Counted from the stretch's first letter, positions 6,673-37,169 are shown. The stretch: DNA of 38,200 bases from a virus (IMGVR_UViG_2703719355_000022:1-38200); one strand, 5' to 3'. The notes: generated by a model from the sequence alone, not told the origin. Numbers and translations are program-made.

Positions 6673-9600
6673 TTAAGAAACAGTAATACCAGTAGTGGCT
6701 TTTTTAGTTACCATTACTGTTAAATCACTGATCCATGTGCTAGGCGTCCAGTTGTTGATTGCGCTTGATTGCACTTCAAAGGTCAAGGTCACAGCACCTT
6801 TACCCGCTGGCATATCAATAACACCTGAGTAAAGACCAGTATTACCGCCATACGCCCTATTATACAACTCTGACCCATTCTTACGAACAATCAGGCGACA
6901 GGTGTCGTAATAGGTATTATTGTTCGACCCTTCACGCGCTCGCAATCCACCAAAACTAACAGCCGGAATAACGATTTGACGATCGAACTTGTGATCATCT
7001 TCAACGCGAACAGTGACCGTTCCCTGTGGATAACCAGCATAACCATTATCAACGTTAACATCACGATGCGGGAACTTACGTCCAATCACCTTAACGAAAT
7101 CACCCTTAACCTGAGTAGCTTCAAGCATACCCTTAATAACACAGCTAGAGTTAATCGTGACGTTGTTCAGAGTACCAGAATCAGCCGTGATATTACCTTT
7201 AACGGTAGCGTTCATGAACGTAGCGGACCCGTTCTTGTTGATATGCCATCCGGTCGATCCGTTCCAGTCGGAAGACTGGATATAGTTACCGATTTTAGCG
7301 TTATCAATTGCACCGTTTACGATCTTGGCATTGGTGATCGCGCCGTCTTGGATTTTCGCTGAATTGATCGCAGCATTGCCGATTTTAGCCGTGGTAATCG
7401 CCGCATCATTAATCTGGGCTGTACCAATTGCAGCATTACGAATCATCGCATTATCGAGATAAACCTTGTTACCTTCGATACCAAACGGGCATACTTCCGA
7501 TCCGTTCTGTGGAGCTACCGCGATTTTATCAGCATTAAAGATGATTCTCGTCGGTTGCGCCGGATCGTTGGTTGCGCTCATGTGAATACCAGCCACGCGA
7601 CCATCTGCATTAACTGCCAGATTATATTTGCTGTTAATGGTTCCTTTCAAAGCATCGATTTTTACATCTGCTTCCTGATTCACGCCAGCAATCTTGCCAT
7701 CCATTTCTACCCGAACTTGATCAATCTTGCTTGCGCTTGCTGCCTCACTGGTAGCAATTGCTTGTTTCAGGGTAGTAGCAGATGCGCTGACTTCGGATTT
7801 AATATCGCCTTTCAGTTCAGCTTTAACCTGATCAATCTTAGTGGAGCTAGCTTGCTCGCTGGTAGCAATCAGACTCTTTAAGGTATCGGCTGAGGCTTGA
7901 ACAGTTTTACCCGTCTCGGTAGTGATTTGCTTATGCATTGCATCAATTTTAGCATCGGCATTAGCGCCAGCTTGAGCAATAGCATCCGCGATAGTTTCAT
8001 CTAAGCGGTCTTGTAAACCAATCAGGTCTTCCAGTGCTTCTTTGTCCTGATCGTCCCAGCTAATTGTAGATCTCATTTGCATGAAATAAGGTTCAGACCA
8101 AACAGCATCATCCATACCGAAAATATCGTAATGTGCCGCACGAAGATAATAATCACCATCAGCCAAATCAAAGGAAGTATGGCTAACACTATTCGTGCTT
8201 ACTGCCCTTGCATCGGAGAAAGTGTTATCGGTTGCATACTGGATGATTGACCCTGCATAATCATGTTCTACGTCATCTGCCCAGCTAACAAACACACTAT
8301 TAAAGCCACCACGCGCACTAAAACCTTTCATTGGCTTATGTTGTGGGTTGATAGCCACTAAACGCGCTGGGGCGCTCTCTGAGTTGTTATAGCCCTTAGC
8401 CGATACTTCTACCGTCAGTTGACGCGAAAGGCCGTTAAACTGGTTCATATCAAGCGTATAAGTCCATGATTCAGGATCGCGGGTACGGTACTGAATAGAC
8501 TTACCAGCCTTGTTAGTCACCTTGATAATGTATGCTTCAAACAGGTCACTAAACTTGTTAGTTTCACCGTTGATCTCAACATCTAATTGTTGCTGATTTT
8601 CCCATTCGATAATCAGATCATTACCTTCGAAAGTCCCTGGCGTGCTACCCTGATTTTTGATTCGAATAACCGGAGTCGGCAATTCATAGGTAACAGTCGG
8701 ATTCTGGTTAATCAGTTCTACCCAATCGGATCGAGCGATGATACCGAAAGCACAAACTCGGTAATCGTAAGAGCGATCTTTTGCCAGTGCATTGACATTG
8801 AAGATTTGCTGTGAAGTCTGTCCCAGCTTAATCCAGTTAGGTGATCCGCTTACACGGTAATCAATCTGGAAACCATAACGGTTAAAATCTTCCGGTGCAT
8901 CCCATGTCAAAGTAACGTTTTTACCGTAAATCGTCTCGCCAGTTGCCTTAATTCTGAAATTAGTAGGCTTCTGTAATGTCATTGAATCCGGTAAACCACT
9001 TGGTCTATTGTCCGGTTTAGCCGCATAATCCAGATCTGTGTAAATCTGAGAATTATATTCTGTGGCGGTGATAGACAAAATACCAGCAATACCAGAATCA
9101 ATGCTACGCTCAATAGAGATAATACGCCAAAGTGAATTATTCAGTTTCAATTCATCGTGGGTAACGCTGATAACGTCCCAAACTTCCGCGCTGAATGCAT
9201 CGGTAGTAGTGAAGTTGATAACCTGAGTAATACGAGATTTATTTCGTTCAATGCTCGCTAATTTGTCAATCTGGTTTTCATCTTTAACAAAGCGATATTC
9301 TACGTCTTTAGCAATAATGCGCCCATCTTGACGGATAGTAGCATCATTTTCAGCATCAGCCGGATAACGTAGCATTTGCTCTGAATAGTCTAAAGATGGT
9401 TCCTGATAGATTGCGTTAATGGTATTGAAATAACCGTTAGTGCCACCTGTTTTCAGGTTAACTTTCCCCATCATTATATTGTCTTCATTGAAGGTATGTT
9501 TAACAATATCAGGAGCATCCAGTTTCAGTGTAATACGTCCAAAGGATTCAAACATTACCCCGCCGAAAGTCTGCATCAATCCGGTCAAGTTCTCTTTAAA

Positions 9601-22119: not shown

Positions 22120-24192
22120 TCAATCGCTTTTTTTCTGGACTACGGTCAGTGCGCTATGGTCCATAACAGCCCAATCCAAATCAGCCCATACACGGAAGTA
22201 CAGGTTGCCAGCCGCGCGACCTGTGGTGTCGTCGCAATCCAGTTCCAGCGATCCGAAGTCCGCAATTGCCAGAGAGCTAAAGTCACCAAACAGCATCGTA
22301 TCCTGAGCAATTACACCAGAGCCATAGATCGGACGGTTAACCAGTTTATCACCTTCTACCAGGAAGCCCGGAACGTTAGCGGCTTTCAGTTGCGCTGAAA
22401 GTTCAGCTTTAATAACACCACGAGTAGCAAATGCCAGATCAGATTCGTTAAAACCTTTGTCTGTTTGTTCAGCAACCAGTTTCAGGAACTCGGCATAGGT
22501 CCAATCAATCTGTTTAACTTTGCCAGCGTCGGTCAGGATCTTAGTCAGACCATCACGAGCGTTAGTGTTAGCAGCATTGGACAGGATCGCTTTTTCCAGA
22601 GCGATAGCACTGTGTTTCAGCATGTGCTCACCAACGATAGCACCGATGTTAGGCAGAGTGATAGCAGCCTGACGAGTTACAGGAACAATTCCATTGAATG
22701 TCTTAAGAGTCATCGGCTGTGCTGCAAACTTGATAGTACCTTCACCAGCGGATTGACCTTCTGCAACAAAACCGAAGTTTTCCAGATTGCTGGAAGTCAG
22801 AGACGGCAGAGATACCGGACCAGTTGCGTTAATGGTACGCACGCCCAATTTGCCCAGAATAGAACGTTCCATGATCATATCAACGAAGCAATCATGGCGG
22901 ATTTCTTCACCAACTACAGGTTTCAGAGATTCCATGTTCTGGCTAGCACGCAGAGCGGACGCCGGAATGAATACGGAGTTAGAACGCTGTGCACGACCAC
23001 GCGCTGCGGCTTTACGTGCTTCTTCCTGAGAATATTCAGCTTCTGCGCCAGTCAGTGCTTTACCCTCTGCGATTGCACGTACAGCTTTATTAAGATCGAA
23101 ACGAGATTCCAGAGTTTTAATGGTATCGGTCATGGTAATTTTTCCTTTAACAAAAGTTTTAGATTCGGTAGTATTTAGTGCGCGTGCTTTTTCTTTAAAA
23201 TTTTCAATAGTCACGGCACTATCTTTAATTGCGGCTTCAATTACGTCTTCGGAGATATTTAGATGTTTTCCGATAGCACGAATTTCGGCGGTATCTTCGC
23301 GAGAACGTTCAAACGGTTTTTCTTCGTCTTCAATCTTTTCTTCTTCGACTGGTTCGGATGTATTTTCCGTTTCGTCGTTCTCGTCTGTATCTTTATTTAG
23401 TTCTTCTGTTTCTTCCGGTTTAATTTCTTCTTCCGGTTCATCTTCGGAACGTTCTTCTTTTTCTTCTGGCGTTACTTCTTGCGGGTTTTCCACATCTTCG
23501 CCACTGTCAGCACTATTTCCAGAATCGGAATCAATTTCTTCATTTTCCTGTTCCTCTTTCTCTTCTTCGGAACGTTTTTCTTCATCTTCCGGTTTAATTT
23601 CTTCTACCGGAGTGTCTTTAATTTCGTCTTCCACTTGTTCACCCTCCAAAACAATCATTTCGTTGTCTGTATTTAGAGAGCGTCCAACACCCGCGTTAAA
23701 TGGATCTGCGGCACACGTTACAAGACTGCATTCGAAAGGTTGCCAGCGTGTAACGTAATAGATCCCTTTGTTAAAATCGGCTTTGCCATCAAGAACGTTA
23801 TAACCGACGCTAACTTGTGAAAGTGTTCCCTCTTTTACCTTCTCAAAGCATTCATTAGCCAGTTGGCCTACTTTGGAGAATTGGACAAGGCAACGACCTA
23901 CACGGTCTTCGTCAATACGAGCGGAGCCAGGAACAATCTTGCCGATATGAAGGTCCAGATTGTGATTAAACAGAAGACTTGCGTTAGTCTCGTTTAAAAC
24001 GGATAGATCAACCGCTGATTCATCGTGTACGAGAATCTCTTTTAATTCGACTTGCTCGCCGTCCTGATTCATGTAATAACGTGTATAAGGAGCCTCGCTT
24101 GAGAAAGCCAATTCAATAATTCGTTCGTCTTTTTCTTCGATAAAATCAGGGGTATCTACCGCAACACTACGACGGAATTGTTTTGTTGTCAT
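22120..24192 (-). CDS. prohead protease / acidic scaffold-like linker / HK97-fold major capsid protein fusion, 690 aa
   Basis: N-terminal ~170 aa resemble HK97-type prohead protease (LSQVSVGYNVLDG...WQPFECSLVTCAADPFNA); ~150-aa Glu-rich linker with internal repeats; C-terminal ~350 aa with HK97-fold capsid-like motifs (GNLYFRVWADLDWAV); ends in TGA. Confidence 0.8.
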   Translation of the reverse strand: MTTKQFRRSVAVDTPDFIEEKDERIIELAFSSEAPYTRYYMNQDGEQVELKEILVHDESAVDLSVLNETNASLLFNHNLDLHIGKIVPGSARIDEDRVGRCLVQFSKVGQLANECFEKVKEGTLSQVSVGYNVLDGKADFNKGIYYVTRWQPFECSLVTCAADPFNAGVGRSLNTDNEMIVLEGEQVEDEIKDTPVEEIKPEDEEKRSEEEKEEQENEEIDSDSGNSADSGEDVENPQEVTPEEKEERSEDEPEEEIKPEETEELNKDTDENDETENTSEPVEEEKIEDEEKPFERSREDTAEIRAIGKHLNISEDVIEAAIKDSAVTIENFKEKARALNTTESKTFVKGKITMTDTIKTLESRFDLNKAVRAIAEGKALTGAEAEYSQEEARKAAARGRAQRSNSVFIPASALRASQNMESLKPVVGEEIRHDCFVDMIMERSILGKLGVRTINATGPVSLPSLTSSNLENFGFVAEGQSAGEGTIKFAAQPMTLKTFNGIVPVTRQAAITLPNIGAIVGEHMLKHSAIALEKAILSNAANTNARDGLTKILTDAGKVKQIDWTYAEFLKLVAEQTDKGFNESDLAFATRGVIKAELSAQLKAANVPGFLVEGDKLVNRPIYGSGVIAQDTMLFGDFSSLAIADFGSLELDCDDTTGRAAGNLYFRVWADLDWAVMDHSALTVVQKKSD

Positions 24193-26337: not shown

Positions 26338-28266
26338 TTAAAAGTTATTTACCCACCCACCACGACGCACAGGACGCGCCATAGGACGACGATTAGGTTT
26401 GTGATGAGTGATTGGCTTAGTTTCTTCGATTTGCTCGTTAGAATGTGATTTAGGAGCTTCTACGGTTGCTTCTGGTTCACGATTCAGCTTTTCTTTCATT
26501 GCAATGAGCTTATCCCATGACATTTTTGAAAGAACATAGCGAGAAGCCGCATAGCTATAAACCAGACAGTCGAGCGCCTCGTTTCGTGTCGCACCTGGAT
26601 TTTTTACCCAACGTGTTCCAGTAACAGTACGCTTGATGGATTCACTCAAAAGCTGATCGAGATAATCATCAGGAACGGTTTCTGATATCTCTAAACCAAT
26701 ATGAGGGTTTTCTTTCAAGTTGCGTGTTAATAGCTCACGAATAGCCGTTTTACCCACGTTAACGCCCAACATAAGCAACTCATGACCGCCCGTGGTAGTT
26801 GGTTTCACTGGAATGATTGGAGCAGTACCAGATGAACTACCTTTGATTGCGTGTAAGTTCTTCCACTTACCACCGCAAATACGGTATCCGGCTTGAGTGA
26901 ATCGACCGTTCGATGTATCAAGGAAGCTGGCGAGCATAGGAACACGATCACCCGATACAGTAGTAAATTTGGTTTTATGGAAGTTGATTAATCTGTCCCA
27001 TACAGGAGATTCATATCGTTCACAGTTATGGTCGTAAAAGCTGCGATGATCCAGAATATAAATCTTATCCTTTGCCACGCCCATGATCGTAGTTTCTGCG
27101 CGATCTAATTGCTGGTCAGTACCCGCACACAAGAAAATCACGTCATCAGGGATATTCTCGATAGAAACATCTGTTTTAAGTTCTTCCAGTTCGTTTACTT
27201 CTACTGCCGTTTCCTGATCATCGTATACAGTGCCGAGAACGGTATTATAAAAACTTTGTAAATCAAATGTTTGCCACGCTTGAGAGAAGTCAGAGACACA
27301 TGCTTTGATAGAGCTAAAAGGTGAATATAGACGGCTGATCCAGAATCCTGCTACATCACTTTCACGGGTAGCTCTCCATTCACCTTGTGCAACCGCTCTA
27401 ATGCGATCCCCTTCTGACCAATCAGTCTGGCAATGAGGACACACATAACGGGCGCTTTCAACACATGGCAGATTGCGACCATCCTGATTTTTCCACTCGA
27501 ACTTAACATTTTCCCACTCGATCACCTGGTGTTTCCCGCAATGCGGACAAGGAACAAAGAATTTACGCTGATCACTTGATAACCATTGTTGATTAATCGG
27601 TCCCAGCTTAGTGGTCGGGGTACTGGAAACGATAATTCTTGCTTCATCCCCGAAAGTGGTTGCGCGGTTAGCCGCAAGTGCAATCGGATCGCCCTCTTCA
27701 CTAGCACTGGCAGCATCACATTCATCGAGCAGAATCAACGGGCTGGTTTTTGAACGCAAGGTTGATGGGCTAGTAAGCGATACCATGTAAAGAAAATGAT
27801 TAGTCTTAAGCTGAATCTGACTATTGTTATTAACAGCGTTGCGATCATTCTTGTCGGTGATTGCTTCGCGTAATGCCGGACATGCTTCAATGGCTGGTCG
27901 GATCTTCCCGCTTAGGTACTGAGCGGTTTCCTTCGTGGTTGCTTGGCCTATGATGATATTGCTGGGATCGTTAGCTATCTTATTGAATAATATACCATTA
28001 AGGATGGAAGTTTTGCCGATCTGGGCACTTGTACAAAAAATGTACTTTTTCTTATTCTCTAAGAAAGGAGCATCAATCATGCCTTTCTGAAAGCTGGTTA
28101 ATTTAATTTTAGCGCCAGCTTGTGGTCCATCCACTAGGATCATGTTTTCCTCGCACCATTCAGATGGTAAACGCTTAATTGGCGGTCGGATATGTTTTGA
28201 TACTTCGTTAAAAATTCGCTTGAGTTTAAATTTATTTGAGAGTTTTTTCACCGTGATTATCCTCAT
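26338..28266 (-). CDS. terminase large subunit, lambda gpA family, 642 aa
   Basis: Motifs [29 protein letters not shown] and C-terminal RNEALDC recall lambda gpA; Walker A-like GKTS; first gene of the minus-strand operon. Confidence 0.9.
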
Positions 28267-30947: not shown

Positions 30948-31280
30948 TTACCAATCGATTTCTACTTGGTCTTCTTCATAATAAGGAATCGCATATTCAT
31001 AACGCCAGTTTTCGATGATTTCACGTTCTTCATTAGTAAGAAGGTGATTGCTAACTGGAGTCGCATTGTGATTACCAGCTTCGAATTGCTCGCGAACTTC
31101 CAGCATTGCATGAATACCAGTTAAAGACATCAGATCAAACGGAACATGCATACTACGGGAGATAGTTTCACGGGATACGCCCCAATCATTTTCTACATGG
31201 CTAGGGGTTACAGAAACGGTTTTGCCGGATATTTTAACAGTCCAGTCATACAGGGATTTAGTGATGGTAAATTCTTTCAT
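30948..31280 (-). CDS. hypothetical protein, 110 aa
   Basis: AGAGGA ribosome-binding motif; first gene after a strong promoter; no recognised domain. Confidence 0.45.
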   Translation of the reverse strand: MKEFTITKSLYDWTVKISGKTVSVTPSHVENDWGVSRETISRSMHVPFDLMSLTGIHAMLEVREQFEAGNHNATPVSNHLLTNEEREIIENWRYEYAIPYYEEDQVEIDW

Positions 31281-31400: not shown

Positions 31401-31868
31401 TTACAGCATGTCTAAGCCTTCATCGTAGCCGTAGAAGCCATTCTGAGAAGAGAAACAGATTGGCGCGTAGTCGTCGTCATCTTCGTCTTGTTCATCTTCT
31501 TCTGGGGCTTCCTGAGCGGTTTCTTTGCCGTAGTTAAACATTGCTTCATCCAGTTCATAGACAGTAACGAAGCTCCCCAGGTCAATGTCACCGGAACGGA
31601 CTTCAAACGGAAGATCATCACGAACAATAATTGCTGGTAGATTCTGGTACTTTAAGCGTTCTTCATCGGTGAAGACGTTAACAACAATGGTCGGCTTCTT
31701 ATTACGGCAAAACGCATACCATGCACTAGAGAAATGGGATTCATCAGAGTTGAAAAGGATGTTATAACCACGTTCACGGAACATCTTCATTAACTTGTCA
31801 TTGTGAAAGCTATCAGAATCCAGACCCAGAAGGATAAAAGGAGTAGTGGTAGTCATTTTATGGTTCAT
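31401..31868 (-). CDS. hypothetical acidic protein, 155 aa
   Basis: GAGGA ribosome-binding motif; C-terminal third very acidic (EEDEQDEDDDDY); no recognised domain. Confidence 0.45.
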   Translation of the reverse strand: MNHKMTTTTPFILLGLDSDSFHNDKLMKMFRERGYNILFNSDESHFSSAWYAFCRNKKPTIVVNVFTDEERLKYQNLPAIIVRDDLPFEVRSGDIDLGSFVTVYELDEAMFNYGKETAQEAPEEDEQDEDDDDYAPICFSSQNGFYGYDEGLDML

Positions 31869-32153
31869 AGTGGAAATCCTCTAAAAGAAAGTGAATCAAT
31901 CTAATATTATTTATAAAGAGAAAATTCTTGTTATTATGGAAAGAGTGGTCTGGTAGAGTCCAAAACTGGTCTGTACTTGAAAGGTGATTGGATTCAGTCG
32001 GGCTAGCCCTCCTTCATAGATTTGATTAAATCATCACCAAAACGAAGAAGTATCTTTATAATATAAGAATCTTTCTTTTGTAGAAATAATAATCGAACAA
32101 GATGGACGCTCCCTGAGCGTCTGCGAAGCATATCTAATTCCTTCCAGTATCAT

Positions 32154-32242
32154 CAAAGTGATCTAGAATCAGTTTGTTTTAAAGTGATTGTAATACCTTT
32201 ATCTTGGAAGTGATTTAACTACCATCTTCAAAGTGATCTTGA
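32154..32242 (+). repeat. four direct copies of AAGTGAT(Y)T spaced 24-26 bp
   Basis: GTGAT cores at 32158, 32184, 32209, 32233; outer copies are the near-identical 19-mers TCAAAGTGATCT(A/T)GAATCA. Confidence 0.6.
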
Positions 32243-32316
32243 ATCATCATGTTAAAATCCCTTCCTGAATGATTCGAAGCAGATTACTCGCGCCCCGCAG
32301 GGCGCATAATATCTTT

Positions 32317-32354
32317 GTAGGTATATTGGTTTGATGGTATGTAGGTATATTGGT
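32317..32354 (+). repeat. direct repeat GTAGGTATATTGGT x2 (24-bp period)
   Basis: Identical 14-mers at 32317-32330 and 32341-32354; preceded by palindrome GCGCCC-CGCA-GGGCGC at 32290-32305. Confidence 0.6.
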
Positions 32355-32408
32355 CTGTAGGTCTGGATCGCTTCTAAGCCCCGTCATTACTGGTTTCCCC
32401 ACTTTGAA

Positions 32409-32662
32409 ACGGGGACGGGAAAGAGACGGGGAAGGGATACCACGGGGACAGGTCGGGGATAACATGGGGATGATACGGGGACACCACGGGGAAAGCATTT
32501 AAAATCATATCCTTACATAAGAATACGCATCTAATACCGGGGATTTTACGCGGGGATGGCGGGGAAACTACCCTAATCCGGGGGATTTTGCTTCCAAAAC
32601 GGGGATGAACGCGGGGACGGTGACGGGGATACATCTTCTAAAGTGGGGATATCGCGGGGAAA
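32409..32662 (+). repeat. G-rich array of at least 16 same-orientation CGGGGA motifs, first seven largely phased at 11 bp
   Basis: GGGGA starts at 32411, 32428, 32444, 32455, 32466, 32477, 32488, 32539, 32552, 32561, 32581, 32601, 32613, 32625, 32645, 32656; flanked downstream by an AT-rich stretch. Confidence 0.8.
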
Positions 32663-32865
32663 CCTTTAAATTCATTCAAATATTTTGATAGAAAATTCTT
32701 GTATATTATTTAACCAAAAAATCATCAAAAATCGCTGTAACTTAATGATTTAAAAGGGATTATCAAAAGGTCGCCGTGCTATAATAGGTTATAAAGGTTG
32801 ATAATCATTATTCGCCATTTTCACACAAAAATTTTGATAGCCTTTTCTCGCTTGGGTCAAGTGTG

Positions 32866-32894
32866 TTGACTTCTGTCAAGGATTATTTTATACT
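32866..32894 (+). promoter_or_regulatory. sigma70-type promoter (TTGACT-17-TATACT) reading into the plus-strand early genes
   Basis: -35 at 32866-32871, -10 at 32889-32894; flanked by GTCAA/TTGAC half-sites at 32856-32879. Confidence 0.55.
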
Positions 32895-33236: not shown

Positions 33237-33419
33237 ATGGCCAGAACTGTTAAATTTACTCGCGAGATTATGTTAGAGAAAGCAAAACGCTACTTTGAAC
33301 TGACGCCGGGAGTGAGGATTGAAGAGTGGTTTAAAAATGAAGGCATCGATAAATCAACCTTCCATAAACTCTTAAAGAAATATGAAATCAAGGTGAAGAT
33401 TGAAGCTACCGTTTGGTAA
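33237..33419 (+). CDS. hypothetical small protein, 60 aa
   Basis: ATG at 33237 with GAGGA upstream (track start 33201 has no ribosome-binding motif); basic helical protein. Confidence 0.4.
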   Translation: MARTVKFTREIMLEKAKRYFELTPGVRIEEWFKNEGIDKSTFHKLLKKYEIKVKIEATVW

Positions 33420-33518
33420 TCAACTTTGACTGAGAATTAAATTATGAAACTTTTAACCAATAAAAAAGCCCCCTTGCGGCAACAAGGAGGCTTCTACTTA
33501 ACATAAGGAATTACTACA

Positions 33519-34532
33519 ATGAAACAAAATAACTTCTCTATTACCGTTTACAGCAACACCGCAGACACCGCAAAATATCAGTACGATGCAGATATCGAAA
33601 TTCGTAACTATGGCAGCAACGAAGCCGACGAATTAACTATTGGCACTAATATTTATAAAGAAGAATCTATCGATTCTCTGTACACCACTCTCTATCATGC
33701 TGGTTCCGACTGGAAAAAAGAATACCGTGGTTTAGAGCGTAAGAAAGCTACTTTGAAAGCAATGGTTAAACCAGACCAGCGCGAAGTATATGCTATCGCT
33801 TACAAGAACGGCGACGAATCCTATGTAGTGTCTATCCTGCAAGATGAAGCTGGTAGCCTCTGGGGTAACATGATCCACGCTTCCCGCCGCGATGCTAAAG
33901 GCCGTTTCGTTAATGGTAAAGTTAAAAACTTTGCTCTGGCTTCTAGTGTTGTTGGTGCATGGTCTGATTGTGCTCACGGTGAGAAATTCAATATTTCTTT
34001 CTTCGTTTCCAACAAAGCTAAACTGAATGTTAACGCTGTTGATAAGGCAGTATGGAAAGAAACCACTAAAGAAAAAACCGTTTCCAACTACGAAGAAGAA
34101 TTACAGCAGCGTGATATTCAGATTCTGTCTGATGCGCATCGTGCTTTTGAGCAACGTCTTGCTGAGATGGAACGCAAATTCGCTATGCTGATGGAAGAAA
34201 ACATTAGTCTGAAAAAAGAAATTGAAGTTCTTGAAATCCGTGTAGAAGAACTGGAAGCAAAAGAAGTTAAAGCGCCGGAAGTTAAAGAAGTTGAAGCGGT
34301 AGCAGTAGTTCCGGCAGCTACCCAGGAAGAAGCGAAAGAAGAAAAAGAAGCACCGGAGGCGGTTACTGTTGATCAGCCGATTATCAAACCAGCGTTAACC
34401 GTAGTTTCTTGTGATATTTCTGATGCCAGCTTAAACAACCTTCTTGATGTAGAAGAAGGATATAAACCATATGTTCCAACCATTCCGGCTATGGATGAGA
34501 TGGACCGCGAATTACTTGATTTTGCAGCTTAA
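33519..34532 (+). CDS. hypothetical protein with central coiled coil and acidic C-terminal tail, 337 aa
   Basis: AAGGAA ribosome-binding motif; heptad-like region around residues 190-250; C-terminus MDEMDRELLDFAA; function unknown. Confidence 0.5.
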   Translation: MKQNNFSITVYSNTADTAKYQYDADIEIRNYGSNEADELTIGTNIYKEESIDSLYTTLYHAGSDWKKEYRGLERKKATLKAMVKPDQREVYAIAYKNGDESYVVSILQDEAGSLWGNMIHASRRDAKGRFVNGKVKNFALASSVVGAWSDCAHGEKFNISFFVSNKAKLNVNAVDKAVWKETTKEKTVSNYEEELQQRDIQILSDAHRAFEQRLAEMERKFAMLMEENISLKKEIEVLEIRVEELEAKEVKAPEVKEVEAVAVVPAATQEEAKEEKEAPEAVTVDQPIIKPALTVVSCDISDASLNNLLDVEEGYKPYVPTIPAMDEMDRELLDFAA

Positions 34533-34559
34533 TTTTTAATTTAAAAGAGGAATACTACT

Positions 34560-35561
34560 ATGAACATTTACGCAATCGACAACAAAAAACTCAACAAAGA
34601 AGAAACTGAATCACTGGTAAACGTTCGTCTGACCTCCACCTTTGACGGTGGAGTTACCGCAAACTTCAAATTCACCGATAATCTTAACGGCGGTGATTAT
34701 TATCAGGAATTGTTTTCTATTCAGAATCCCCGCGCTAAAGATTCTGAGAATGTCATTAAAGAAATCATGAAACACGGTATCAAGCTGACGGTAGAAGAAC
34801 ATACTATGATTAACAGCTTCATCAATAAAACTGGTGATCGTCTGGTTTATTCTGTGGTTGGTTATGAACTTAGTGGGTTTTACGATGAAGAGAAGAAAGG
34901 CGTTGCTATGGTTGTGATTAGCCGTGGTGGCGTCGCTACTGTCTTCGCTTTTGGTAATGTTGTTCAGGGTACGCCGAAAACATCAAACGTTTATACGATC
35001 CGCATTAAAGAAAATAGCTATTGCCGTTATAATCTGGCTTTGGTGTCTACCGACGATAACAGCGTTGAACTTAGCGACATGAAATCCTACACCTTCCCTA
35101 TCGATGTGGAAGGCAATTTAGGAAAAACTGTGTTTCAATTCTATGTGACAAAACCTAAAGTTCCAGCATGTATTGAAGACCACGACCATCAAGTTTGTGC
35201 ATATAAAGCCAATCTGGAAGCGATTAAGGCCAAAGAGAAAGCAGAGCAGGAAGAACGGGATCGCCCACGTAAAGAAGCAGAGGCACAAGCAAAACAGCTT
35301 CTAGGCCGATTTAACAGCATGAAGACTAAGATCAAGAATGCTAAAACGTGGGAAGATGCGGTTAAGTTCTATCATCAAGCTAATATTCTTTTGGTTGAAG
35401 TAGAAGAAGCGCGGGATCTGTGGGCTAGCTTAGATAAGAAGTACGCGCAACGTAGATCGCCAGCAACCTTACAGCCGATTGATGAACTGTGCAAACTTCC
35501 TAAGCCAGAAATTAAACATGAAATTAAGAAAGCAAGACCTACCCTTCGTTTGGTTGCTTAA
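34560..35561 (+). CDS. hypothetical protein, 333 aa
   Basis: AGAGGAA ribosome-binding motif; Lys/Glu-rich helical C-terminus; no recognised domain. Confidence 0.5.
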   Translation: MNIYAIDNKKLNKEETESLVNVRLTSTFDGGVTANFKFTDNLNGGDYYQELFSIQNPRAKDSENVIKEIMKHGIKLTVEEHTMINSFINKTGDRLVYSVVGYELSGFYDEEKKGVAMVVISRGGVATVFAFGNVVQGTPKTSNVYTIRIKENSYCRYNLALVSTDDNSVELSDMKSYTFPIDVEGNLGKTVFQFYVTKPKVPACIEDHDHQVCAYKANLEAIKAKEKAEQEERDRPRKEAEAQAKQLLGRFNSMKTKIKNAKTWEDAVKFYHQANILLVEVEEARDLWASLDKKYAQRRSPATLQPIDELCKLPKPEIKHEIKKARPTLRLVA

Positions 35562-35564
35562 GAC

Positions 35565-35608
35565 AATAAAAAAGGGAGTCCCCGACGAAAGAGACTCCCT
35601 TTTGATTT
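35565..35608. terminator. bidirectional terminator (AAGGGAGTC-loop-GACTCCCTT flanked by A-run and T-run)
   Basis: 9-bp stem between convergent gene blocks. Confidence 0.5.
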
Positions 35609-36278: not shown

Positions 36279-36836
36279 TTACGACACATCAAATTCATCG
36301 TCTTCTTGTTCTTCTTCCGGTTCTTCCTGCTTCACTTCCTCATCTTCTGAGTATTCATCGTAGGCATCAAGATCCGGTGAAATCATAATATCCCCGATCT
36401 CATTCAAACGAGCGGAAATGATATCCTTCAATGTTTCTTTCAAAGTACGCTGATCCGTTGCAGCTTCCATAATTTTTAGAGTGTCTACCGTCGCCATCTG
36501 CATCATGGTCTGGCGTACATCACCACAAAATCCGGCTAGAACTGTTTCTACATAACCTACAGGAATCAGATCATTTAGTTCGGTGCGGTTCTTAAGTTCG
36601 ATGGCGTCCGCCTCCCCTCTCGCCTTTCTTAATCGTTCTTGTTGGATCTGCGCTTGTACATCAACTTCCCTAAGTGGGCTGATTATGTTTTCAATTACCC
36701 AGGTGATTGCTCTATCCCGTGGACAACGGCGGGTATTCGTATTATACGGAAGACCACGATCACGCCATTTCTGAACAGCCGGAAGGGAATACCCATACAT
36801 TTTAGATAATTCGGTTAAAGTTACTTCTTGCGTCAT
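36279..36836 (-). CDS. terminase small subunit, lambda Nu1-like, 185 aa
   Basis: N-terminal TLTELSKMYGYSLPAVQKWRDRGLPY and central ARGEADAIELKNR...YVETVLAGFCGDV match my recollection of lambda Nu1; ATG at 36836 with AGAGGA upstream; acidic C-terminus. Confidence 0.7.
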   Translation of the reverse strand: MTQEVTLTELSKMYGYSLPAVQKWRDRGLPYNTNTRRCPRDRAITWVIENIISPLREVDVQAQIQQERLRKARGEADAIELKNRTELNDLIPVGYVETVLAGFCGDVRQTMMQMATVDTLKIMEAATDQRTLKETLKDIISARLNEIGDIMISPDLDAYDEYSEDEEVKQEEPEEEQEDDEFDVS

Positions 36837-37169
36837 GAAACTATCCTCTGAGCTAAAAATATGCGTAATTGTATTTAGACGAAATACGCAATATAACGGC
36901 CTATAACGCAATTTAAGAAAATCCCATGTGACGGGGCGTTGAGAAGTGATTTAGCTCGTTGTAGGGCTTGTTTGGTGGCTTAACTAAACCAATTTGAAAA
37001 AGGCACAAGCGAGATTTAAACCGCGCCGGGCAAAACACGCCCTCTTTTACCACTTATCACAGCACCTTTCTGTTGTCAAGTCTTTTTTATCGAATATTTT
37101 AAATTTTTTCATCTTTTTTCTCGTGCATTCATCCGTTTTTTTCTCGGTCAAAATCAATGACTTGACCCG

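Follow-up and report, generated by a model that had tools for sequence, protein, structure and literature searches.

A prophage repeat array that covaries with an orphan coiled-coil protein, and an SspB-like tail on the protein encoded next to it

The window analysed here, by which we mean the whole of a 38,200-nucleotide (nt) stretch of viral DNA (IMGVR_UViG_2703719355_000022:1-38200), is a tailed temperate phage. Two adjacent genes on its + strand, open reading frame A (ORF-A; 33519-34532, 337 amino acids (aa)) and ORF-B (34560-35561, 333 aa), lie exactly where an earlier note, made from the sequence alone, had placed two proteins of interest. A 60-aa ORF precedes them in a three-gene operon, of which they are the large members and which is located outside the late structural block and downstream of an array of short, phased repeats. 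Here we report that the N-terminal domain of ORF-A covaries with the repeated motif among related prophages, and that ORF-B ends in a look-alike of the ClpX-docking peptide found on the host adaptor SspB. On the strength of these comparisons we tentatively propose that ORF-A and ORF-B form an origin-type nucleoprotein module whose second member tethers host ClpX, a model that, taken as a whole, we regard as possible rather than probable.

The operon and its two large genes

The best promoter of the region, a sigma70-like TTGACT-17-TATACT (10/12; 32866-32894, +), is predicted to drive all three genes, and in every lineage a promoter scoring 10-12/12 is found downstream of the array and upstream of the small ORF. 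The small ORF (33237-33419, +; 60 aa, with an alternative 72-aa reading from 33201) is the first gene of the operon and occupies a Cro-like position; at the other end, 9 nt past the stop codon of ORF-B, a hairpin with a 14-bp stem and T/A runs on both sides (35570-35603) marks the end of the operon. Both large genes have genuine Shine-Dalgarno motifs (TAAGGA at 33504-33509, +, 9 nt before the ATG of ORF-A, -6.2 kcal/mol; GAGGA at 34547-34551, +, 8 nt before that of ORF-B, -6.0 kcal/mol), which fall in the top 4-5% of random 20-mers. The earlier note had called these ribosome-binding sites strong; for this genome they are only of median strength (ranks 16 and 18 of 35; genome median, -6.0 kcal/mol).

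Codon usage was scored against 30 highly expressed genes of Escherichia coli K-12 (ribosomal-protein, EF-Tu, EF-G and rpoA genes). Because ORF-A contains much Glu and Lys, for which an AT-rich genome favours GAA and AAA regardless, the codons of each gene were also resampled from the phage's own usage with the same amino acids (2000 simulations). The codon adaptation index (CAI) of ORF-A is 0.655, the second highest of 33 genes, and its composition-controlled z value of +7.58, which 0 of 2000 simulations equalled, is the maximum in the window; the corresponding values are 7.25 for the major capsid protein and 6.14 for the major tail protein. ORF-B is ordinary (CAI 0.492, rank 8 of 33; z = 1.49), and of the pair only ORF-A has the codon usage expected of a very abundant protein. 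High-expression codons and abundance had been suggested for both proteins. For ORF-A the suggestion is sustained by its codons and by the sigma70-type operon outside the late block, whereas ORF-B shows no sign of abundance. The accompanying contrast with AT-richer neighbours was wrong, because the GC content of ORF-A and ORF-B (0.417 and 0.414, versus a mean of 0.411) and their GC content at third codon positions (0.356 and 0.396, versus 0.393) are those of the rest of the genome.

ORF-A begins with an N-terminal domain of orphan fold (aa 1-185; 33519-34073, +), which is the candidate array-recognition domain and is followed by a coiled-coil segment (aa 186-250; 34074-34268, +) with a predicted helix at residues 191-249. 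A disordered, acidic linker that is rich in Ala, Pro and Glu and variable in both length and sequence (aa 251-312; 34269-34454, +; predicted local distance difference test (pLDDT) 27-37, isoelectric point (pI) 4.2) then leads to a conserved C-terminal peptide, KPYVPTIPAMDEMDRELLDFAA (34455-34529, +), which has the motif PxIPxMDE...ELL..[L/F/I]AA and an ssrA-like FAA end. The coiled coil and the acidic C-terminal tail that the earlier note had pointed out are thus both confirmed, and the tail, ...DEMDRELLDFAA, is conserved among relatives. The body of ORF-B (34560-35534, +) starts with a beta-rich N-domain that includes two helices (aa ~1-180), continues into a long helical hairpin (aa 203-298) and closes with a variable linker rich in Lys and Pro; its AlphaFold model is usable (mean pLDDT 78), with residues 319-333 below 50 and predicted to be disordered.

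Neither protein could be assigned to a family. Pfam, PHROGs and PADLOC, including permissive scans of each member, returned no family for ORF-A or ORF-B; ORF-A has no NTPase motif and no known domain, and ORF-B has no match to an NTPase family. Megablast and tblastn searches of 50,697 phage records gave zero matches to either protein, and sequence searches of the PDB returned only coiled-coil noise. By neither sequence nor fold does ORF-A belong to a known initiator family (Phage_rep_O, Rep_3, RepA_N and others). An exhaustive HMMER search with a profile of the ORF-A N-domain against 1.84 billion representatives found only 4 clusters, and word-indexed searches covering 5.8 billion clusters turned up 11 relatives of ORF-A and 9 of ORF-B, every one of them labelled 'hypothetical'; these relatives come from Escherichia, Shigella and Salmonella. 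The two proteins share the same order of secondary structures, yet paralogy was rejected, as BLASTP and hhalign detected no similarity between them (probability 0.1%).

A phased repeat array covaries with ORF-A

About 0.85 kb upstream of ORF-A, within a 1.3-kb gene-free gap, 16 GGGGA cores, mostly cGGGGA, lie in the same orientation (32411-32660). The first block (32411-32492, +) has 7 copies with a core spacing of 11 bp and is followed by a 51-nt spacer; the second (32539-32660, +) has 9 copies at a spacing of 9-20 nt. The array holds 16 of the 25 + strand GGGGA motifs of the window, at a density of 11.7 per kb against a background of 0.48 per kb (~24-fold). Across six CGGGGA-class arrays that are 63-97% identical, 86% of core columns are invariant versus 46% of spacer columns (Fisher p = 2e-10, odds ratio 7.2). 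An AT-rich stretch (32660-32770; up to 83% AT per 60-mer) directly follows the array. In the window and in loci L014, L007 and L012, the most AT-rich 60-mers of the gap (80-88% AT) start just past the last motif copy, and in L004 and L013 they do not directly follow the array, so that 4 of 6 lineages conform to the pattern. Multiple phased repeats adjoining an AT-rich region, as in iteron-type origins, are a feature of this locus.

Syntenic prophages of Salmonella, Shigella and E. coli have the same gap and the same two-block design, phased at 10-11 bp, built on other cores; across lineages each array has 13-17 copies in a single orientation. The core is CGGGGA in the window, L014, L015 and L096-L099, TTGTACA in L004 and L012, CCTCCTAC in L007 and L008, and ATCGCAAA in L013. 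When every syntenic protein was compared across 11 loci representing these 4 motif classes, only ORF-A grouped by class: N-domain identity was 72% or more for members of one class and 47% or less for members of different classes, with 0 exceptions in the 11 loci.

Other candidates for the determinant of specificity were rejected. The TerS-like protein, Rha, p151, p74 and ORF-B all break the covariation with the motif, and TerL is 95% identical between L004 and L007, yet their motifs differ. The small ORF of the window is 90% identical to that of L004, which has a different motif, and 25% identical to that of L014, which has the same one. The protein p200 gave no more than a marginal separation of the classes, in 6 loci, and the TTGTACA locus L012 lacks it.

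As its N-domain covaries with the motif, we infer that ORF-A recognises the array, and we consider this probable. The covariation can be argued to be functional rather than a matter of mere linkage because a reassorting gene lies in between: the small ORF has two unrelated alleles (MARTVKFTREIM... and MEEKYKEILIAY..., noted for the window, L012, L014 and L015), which reassort independently of the array motif, of ORF-A and of ORF-B. This match between N-domain and repeat sequence, of the kind expected of initiators, is clean across the 11 loci and is correlative, as distinct from a binding assay. The single orientation of the repeats and their helical-repeat spacing would fit a head-to-tail assembly on one face of the duplex, aided by the coiled coil.

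A two-block array also invites comparison with partition and packaging sites. The parC locus of plasmid R1 consists of two blocks of ~11-bp direct repeats around a spacer, and ORF-A could be imagined to act as ParR does on parC, or as a small terminase does on pac or cosB, with its C-terminal peptide capturing a motor. The two repeat blocks in a 10-11-bp register, their ~50-bp spacer and a partner-capturing peptide at the C terminus of a DNA-binding protein recall the R1 system; a DNA-binding domain, a coiled coil and a motor-binding tail make up the generic TerS plan, and the TerS-like and TerL genes are located on either side of the locus. We nevertheless regard a centromere-like or packaging site as very unlikely. 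The whole prophage encodes no NTPase of the ParA, ParM or TubZ type, the element integrates into the chromosome, and ORF-A is three times larger than ParR and gives no evidence of a ribbon-helix-helix fold. A separate TerS-like gene exists (phrog_57), and neither it nor TerL covaries with the motif; ORF-A itself has no TerS match, and abundance at the level of the capsid would be unexpected for a TerS.

ORF-B ends in an SspB-like tail

The C-terminal octapeptide of ORF-B, RPTLRLVA (35535-35558, +), is an in-register look-alike of the XB tail of SspB, RPALRVVK. The sspB product of E. coli K-12 ends ...GGRPALRVVK, and in 79 Enterobacterales species the tail reads G[GA]RP[AS]LRVVK. The ORF-B tail equals that of SspB at R-8, P-7, L-5, R-4 and V-2, counted in register with the C terminus; Leu(-5) and Val(-2) are reportedly key contacts with ClpX's zinc-binding domain. 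As in SspB, a flexible, poorly conserved linker precedes the tail.

Proteins encoded in the position of ORF-B in related loci (the B slot) are 286, 306, 333 or 364 aa long and 21-43% identical, and all of them end [RK]P[TV]LR[LI]VA-COOH; in these fast-diverging proteins the tail is the sole invariant element. Every codon column of the tail varies in DNA (8/8; 5 purely synonymously, 3 conservatively), and because this variation is mostly synonymous the tail is held by selection on the peptide rather than by descent of a shared DNA block. By comparison, 12 of the 12 codons that precede the tail change their amino acid between lineages. The C-terminal pattern had 50 matches in 2274 distinct reading frames, and the 40 of these 50 that were listed are all SspB or B-slot proteins; the analytic probability of the pattern arising by chance is ~4e-7 per protein. 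A back-translated scan of IMG/VR for RPTLRLVA on other phage proteins returned only this lineage (2 genuine among 9 matches). Within the protein cluster of ORF-B (P0012, 92 member sequences), one 99%-identical variant ends ...KKARPVMTPTY rather than ...KKARPTLRLVA, which looks like a 3' frameshift, either a natural loss of the tail or an assembly error.

The XB peptide RGGRPALRVVK binds the N-domain of ClpX, where it competes with recognition of lambda O and FtsZ (PMC3983244), and it serves as a portable, transplantable ClpX anchor (PMC12373786). Judged by its likeness to this peptide, the ORF-B tail may well bind the ClpX N-domain, and we lean slightly towards the view that it does.

The C terminus of ORF-A tracks the ORF-B type

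The motif PxIPxMDE...ELL..[L/F/I]AA-COOH at the end of ORF-A is shared by most lineages even where overall ORF-A identity is 25-34%, and the C terminus is [L/F/I]AA in 9 of 11 loci. The sequence ALAA, or more generally [hydrophobic]AA-COOH, is a degron for the ClpX pore, with ALAA and the ...GVAA of RseA as reference endings (PMC8512704; PMC8138137). ORF-A ends in ...ELDALLAM in L012 and in ...DELLSFGQ in L013. With these two endings taken into account, what all lineages have in common is an acidic ELL-hydrophobic helix, and the degron reading does not extend to every lineage; on the same ground, the idea that each ORF-A homolog bears a strict ssrA-type degron was rejected.

Across loci, the end of ORF-A pairs perfectly with the type of protein in the B slot. 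DFAA occurs with the 333-aa type (window, L096, L097 and L099), NIAA with the 286-aa type (L098 and L014), NGLDLAA with the 306-aa type (L004, L007 and L008) and LLAM with the 364-aa type (L012); where ORF-A ends in SFGQ (L013) the slot is empty. Mosaic loci display the pairing as well: L004 and L007 have unrelated ORF-A N-domains (24% identical) and identical types of ORF-A tail and ORF-B, and in L098 a window-type N-domain (99% identical) is fused to an L014-type C-part and accompanied by the 286-aa ORF-B. Locus L013 (6001-8012; ORF-A homolog P0024, ATCGCAAA arrays) has three extra + strand genes, of 343, 60 and 70 aa, after its TerS-like gene.

The tails might instead have other partners: ORF-A would still bind the array, and the two tails would dock on other partners, such as the helicase DnaB of the host, DnaK or a phage protein, the likeness to SspB being convergent or coincidental. 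ORF-B departs from SspB at two invariant SspB positions (V-3 and K-1) and has no SspB-like substrate-binding domain (PF04386 gave no match), the ORF-A tail lacks AA-COOH in two lineages, and motifs that bind chaperones are typically short basic-hydrophobic peptides too. We think a partner other than ClpX unlikely. The match covers 5 of 8 positions in the exact C-terminal register, Leu(-5) and Val(-2) included; such a pattern is rarely met by chance, as the value per protein and the listed matches among the 2274 frames indicate; the hosts of the prophages (Escherichia, Shigella and Salmonella) carry exactly this SspB tail; and the layout, in which a conserved terminal module comes after a variable linker, is that of SspB.

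The conserved ORF-A tail also bears on the interpretation first offered in the earlier note, that both proteins are candidates for abundant replication or host-takeover factors, when this is taken generically to mean non-sequence-specific factors of replication, recombination or host takeover (SSB- or annealase-like), with an acidic tip of the SSB type. The very high codon adaptation of ORF-A suits such a role, and a disordered acidic linker that ends in a conserved acidic-hydrophobic tip does recall SSB; the tail is conserved in the manner of a docking peptide, and to that extent the idea of a partner-binding tail survives. A kinship with SSB or recombination proteins finds no support: neither sequence nor fold resembles SSB, Red-beta, Erf or Rad52-type proteins, and the end of the ORF-A tail differs from the SSB-type ...IPF. 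With ORF-B not codon-adapted, and with a strict covariation between ORF-A and a lineage-specific motif that implies sequence-specific recognition, this interpretation is highly improbable.

A candidate origin-type module

The arrangement recalls genes O and P of phage lambda. In lambda O, the N-terminal half goes with the iterons and the C-terminal half with P. Likewise, ORF-A and ORF-B are two adjacent genes just past a small gene at the Cro position of a rightward operon; the N-part of the first protein covaries with a repeated motif beside an AT-rich stretch, and its C-part tracks a downstream partner whose slot is variable and replaceable. Lambda O is, moreover, a ClpXP substrate that is recognised through the ClpX N-domain, at a site overlapping that of the SspB tail (PMC3983244). 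The two systems differ in that neither ORF-A nor ORF-B matches Phage_rep_O or any other Pfam or PHROG family, and in that lambda has four ~19-bp iterons inside its initiator gene, whereas here 13-17 cores of 5-8 bp in one orientation, at a spacing of 11 bp, lie 0.85 kb upstream. The coiled coil and the capsid-level codon adaptation of ORF-A are further differences, as is the SspB-like tail of ORF-B, which lambda P lacks.

Origins of the SaPI Rep/ori and P4 alpha/ori-crr types contain many copies of a 6-8-bp motif in two clusters, the motif matching the specificity of the cognate initiator. The array shares with them short-motif copies in two clusters and a motif that varies, between related elements, together with the putative initiator. 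Unlike ORF-A, in which there is no NTPase motif, the SaPI and P4 initiators are enzymes (helicases or primase-helicases) whose domains can be recognised, and the SaPI iteron clusters flank an AT-rich region next to rep, a layout that the ORF-A array does not share.

The main rival explanation takes the locus to be an immunity switch, in which ORF-A is a repressor of the Mu c type that coats a multi-site operator and ORF-B is a ClpX-linked induction factor, recruiting ClpX to control the stability of ORF-A and thereby the choice between lysis and lysogeny. Mu repressor c consists of a DNA-binding domain, a leucine-rich coiled coil and a C-terminal tail that controls its degradation by ClpXP, and its operators are arranged in blocks. 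ORF-A resembles it in domain order and the array in its multi-site blocks, and the array lies in a 1.3-kb region between divergent operons in a genome with no recognisable CI-type repressor. Salmonella lineages carry extra copies of the motif that closely flank the strong rightward promoter on both sides, and covariation of protein and DNA site in mosaic relatives is also a hallmark of heteroimmune modules. A role for ClpX would have a parallel in Staphylococcus aureus phages, in which ClpX is needed to clear CI during induction (PMC10584840). The array of the window, however, ends ~200 nt upstream of the operon promoter and ~450 nt from the start of the leftward gene, with no predicted promoter overlap, whereas Mu operators overlap the early and repressor promoters. 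ORF-A has no sequence similarity to Mu c, which is neither highly codon-adapted nor provided with a dedicated adaptor gene, and its gene belongs to the Cro-side operon, downstream of a promoter that is strong and looks constitutive. Together with 13-17 phased sites beside an AT-rich stretch and a capsid-level codon adaptation, which are atypical of repressors, these points make an immunity switch quite unlikely in our judgement.

An origin-type complex seems the most likely role for ORF-A and ORF-B, because the genome has no recognisable initiator or repressor and the pair occupies an O/P-like position behind the Cro-position gene. In the model that we propose, the N-domain of ORF-A would recognise the array, the coiled coil would multimerise the protein and the acidic linker would carry the C-terminal docking peptide; polymerising head-to-tail on one face of the DNA, ORF-A would build an origin-type complex, similar to the lambda O-some, beside the AT-rich stretch. 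ORF-B, which would fill the position of lambda P and whose type tracks the C-terminal end of ORF-A, would use RPTLRLVA to imitate the tail that docks SspB on the N-terminal zinc-binding domain of ClpX, and would so tether host ClpX, with or without ClpP, to the complex for remodelling or turnover. Rapid turnover would explain why ORF-A needs capsid-level synthesis. Remodelling by AAA+ proteins has precedents in Mu (MuA with ClpX), RK2 (TrfA with ClpX) and lambda (lambda O with ClpXP). DNA binding by ORF-A, origin function, ClpX binding by ORF-B and contact between A and B are the elements of the model that we infer from the comparisons above. Origin function is its weakest link, as neither DnaA nor IHF sites support an origin, and that the array is a replication origin is a suggestion we make with reserve.

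Several observations weigh against the model. None of the 6 gaps contains a DnaA box (TTATNCACA or TTWTNCACA), and matches to the IHF consensus in these gaps are sporadic and inconsistent, although such sites are not obligatory in phage origins. Replication initiators do not usually show codon adaptation at the level of the capsid. The AlphaFold (AF2) model of ORF-A is poor (pLDDT 53; only the helix at 191-249 is clear), its N-domain has a near-neutral pI of 7.7 and the whole protein an acidic one of 4.8. Fold searches with ORF-A and ORF-B returned only helical-hairpin and coiled-coil noise; there was no significant fold relative. With the array 0.85 kb from ORF-A, linkage is still conceivable as the cause of their covariation, and the pairing between ORF-A tail and ORF-B type may be due to linkage alone, because the 3' end of ORF-A adjoins ORF-B. 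The lineage of L013 has no ORF-B, and it shares with L012 the lack of AA-COOH on ORF-A. At the positions that are invariant in SspB, finally, the ORF-B tail has L or I for V-3, a conservative change, and A for K-1.

How far ORF-B might resemble SspB (E. coli b3228, the ClpXP adaptor for ssrA-tagged proteins) in function as well as in its tail is a separate matter. Both have a variable linker followed by R-P-x-L-R-[V/L/I]-V-x-COOH in register, and the acidic stretch and [L/F/I]AA end of ORF-A, the putative cargo, recall the AANDENY and ALAA of the ssrA tag. ORF-B is twice as long as SspB, has another predicted fold and no PF04386 domain, differs at tail positions -3 and -1, and is phage-encoded and confined to one prophage lineage. 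The idea that ORF-B is a viral mimic of a bacterial protease adaptor, the first of its kind, and brings ClpX or ClpXP onto the complex of ORF-A and the array is one that we put forward as doubtful. If it were so, ORF-A could carry a bipartite tag (an adaptor-binding acidic stretch plus an ssrA-like LAA), and the two proteins could make up a self-contained pair of substrate and adaptor that times the assembly of the complex and its destruction or remodelling; as a side effect, ORF-B might compete with host substrates that depend on the ClpX N-domain.

Other features of the locus and the prophage

Between the small ORF and ORF-A lies a conserved GC-rich hairpin (33464-33495), AAAAGCCCCCTTGCGGCAACAAGGAGGCT, which is identical in the Salmonella locus L004 (~6812-6840) despite diverged flanking genes. 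It scores as an intrinsic terminator on the - strand only, the strand on which it has its U-tract, and could be a stop for antisense transcription or an element that processes or stabilises the ORF-A mRNA. To the left of the GGGGA array is a second set of repeats (32150-32365), made up of four ~25-nt units that contain AAGTGAT (32149-32253), a GC-rich hairpin (~32290-32310) and a tandem pair of TGTAGGTATATTGGT (32316-32363). The AAGTGAT-type units and their hairpin are visible in L004 too, and a conserved factor may bind in this region. An Rfam scan of the locus found no known RNA at E <= 0.1.

The window encodes a large serine recombinase (1248-2942, +), a UvsW-like helicase, tail fibres, a tape measure protein, a protease-capsid fusion, a portal protein, a GpA-type TerL, a Rha-like regulator and a TerS-like protein; no initiator, primase, polymerase or CI could be recognised in it. 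The element is also present in E. coli RMDEC332, where it is flanked by both halves of hicB, the antitoxin gene of the hicAB toxin-antitoxin locus, which the insertion leaves as two annotated partial pseudogenes; because the element is bounded by the split gene, the window is essentially the whole of a ~39-kb prophage. Among 5426 complete E. coli genomes, 58 carry related DNA, in every case in the chromosome, and a search of plasmids gave no match to the element. The Salmonella relatives occupy another integration site, beside a gene for a PHP-domain protein. There is no close characterised phage, the top TerL match being only 45% identical.

The TerS-like gene (36279-36911, -; phrog_57, E = 4e-18, with a weak match to Nu1) lies ~8 kb from TerL (26338-28266, -), with the whole regulatory region in between, and this unusual split of the packaging genes is kept in all relatives. 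The major capsid gene (22120-24192, -) encodes a 690-aa fusion that matches families of head-maturation proteases and major head proteins. Because the capsid is a protease fusion, the phage probably has no need of a separate scaffold, and a scaffolding role for ORF-A is disfavoured for that reason. At the head of the leftward operon is a gene for a 155-aa protein with an acidic C-terminal tail (31401-31868, -; codon z = 4.0), followed by one for a 110-aa protein (30948-31280, -; codon z = 3.0); neither has a family match. PADLOC gave zero matches for ORF-A, ORF-B and 7 neighbouring ORFs. The GC content of the phage genome is ~41%, versus ~50% in the host, and its most highly expressed genes nonetheless carry E. 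coli-optimal codons; strong counter-adaptation is seen in the integrase, the helicase and several small genes (z -4.2 to -3.7).

Implications

Neither protein family is annotated in the databases that we searched, and the literature that we searched describes neither this system of array and protein nor the SspB-tail look-alike, and contains no account of a phage XB or SspB mimic. If the proposed model is correct, the N-domain of ORF-A would be a DNA-recognition domain of a new kind, occurring naturally in four specificities (CGGGGA, TTGTACA, CCTCCTAC and ATCGCAAA), well suited to domain swaps. A natural viral mimic of XB would reveal how phages connect to the AAA+ unfoldases of their hosts, and would be directly relevant to engineered degraders that recruit ClpX through an XB anchor (PMC12373786). 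For the phages themselves, two 'hypothetical proteins' present in ~1% of complete E. coli genomes would prove to be the specificity core of an uncharacterised lineage of temperate phages, one in which genes for replication and immunity are otherwise not recognisable.

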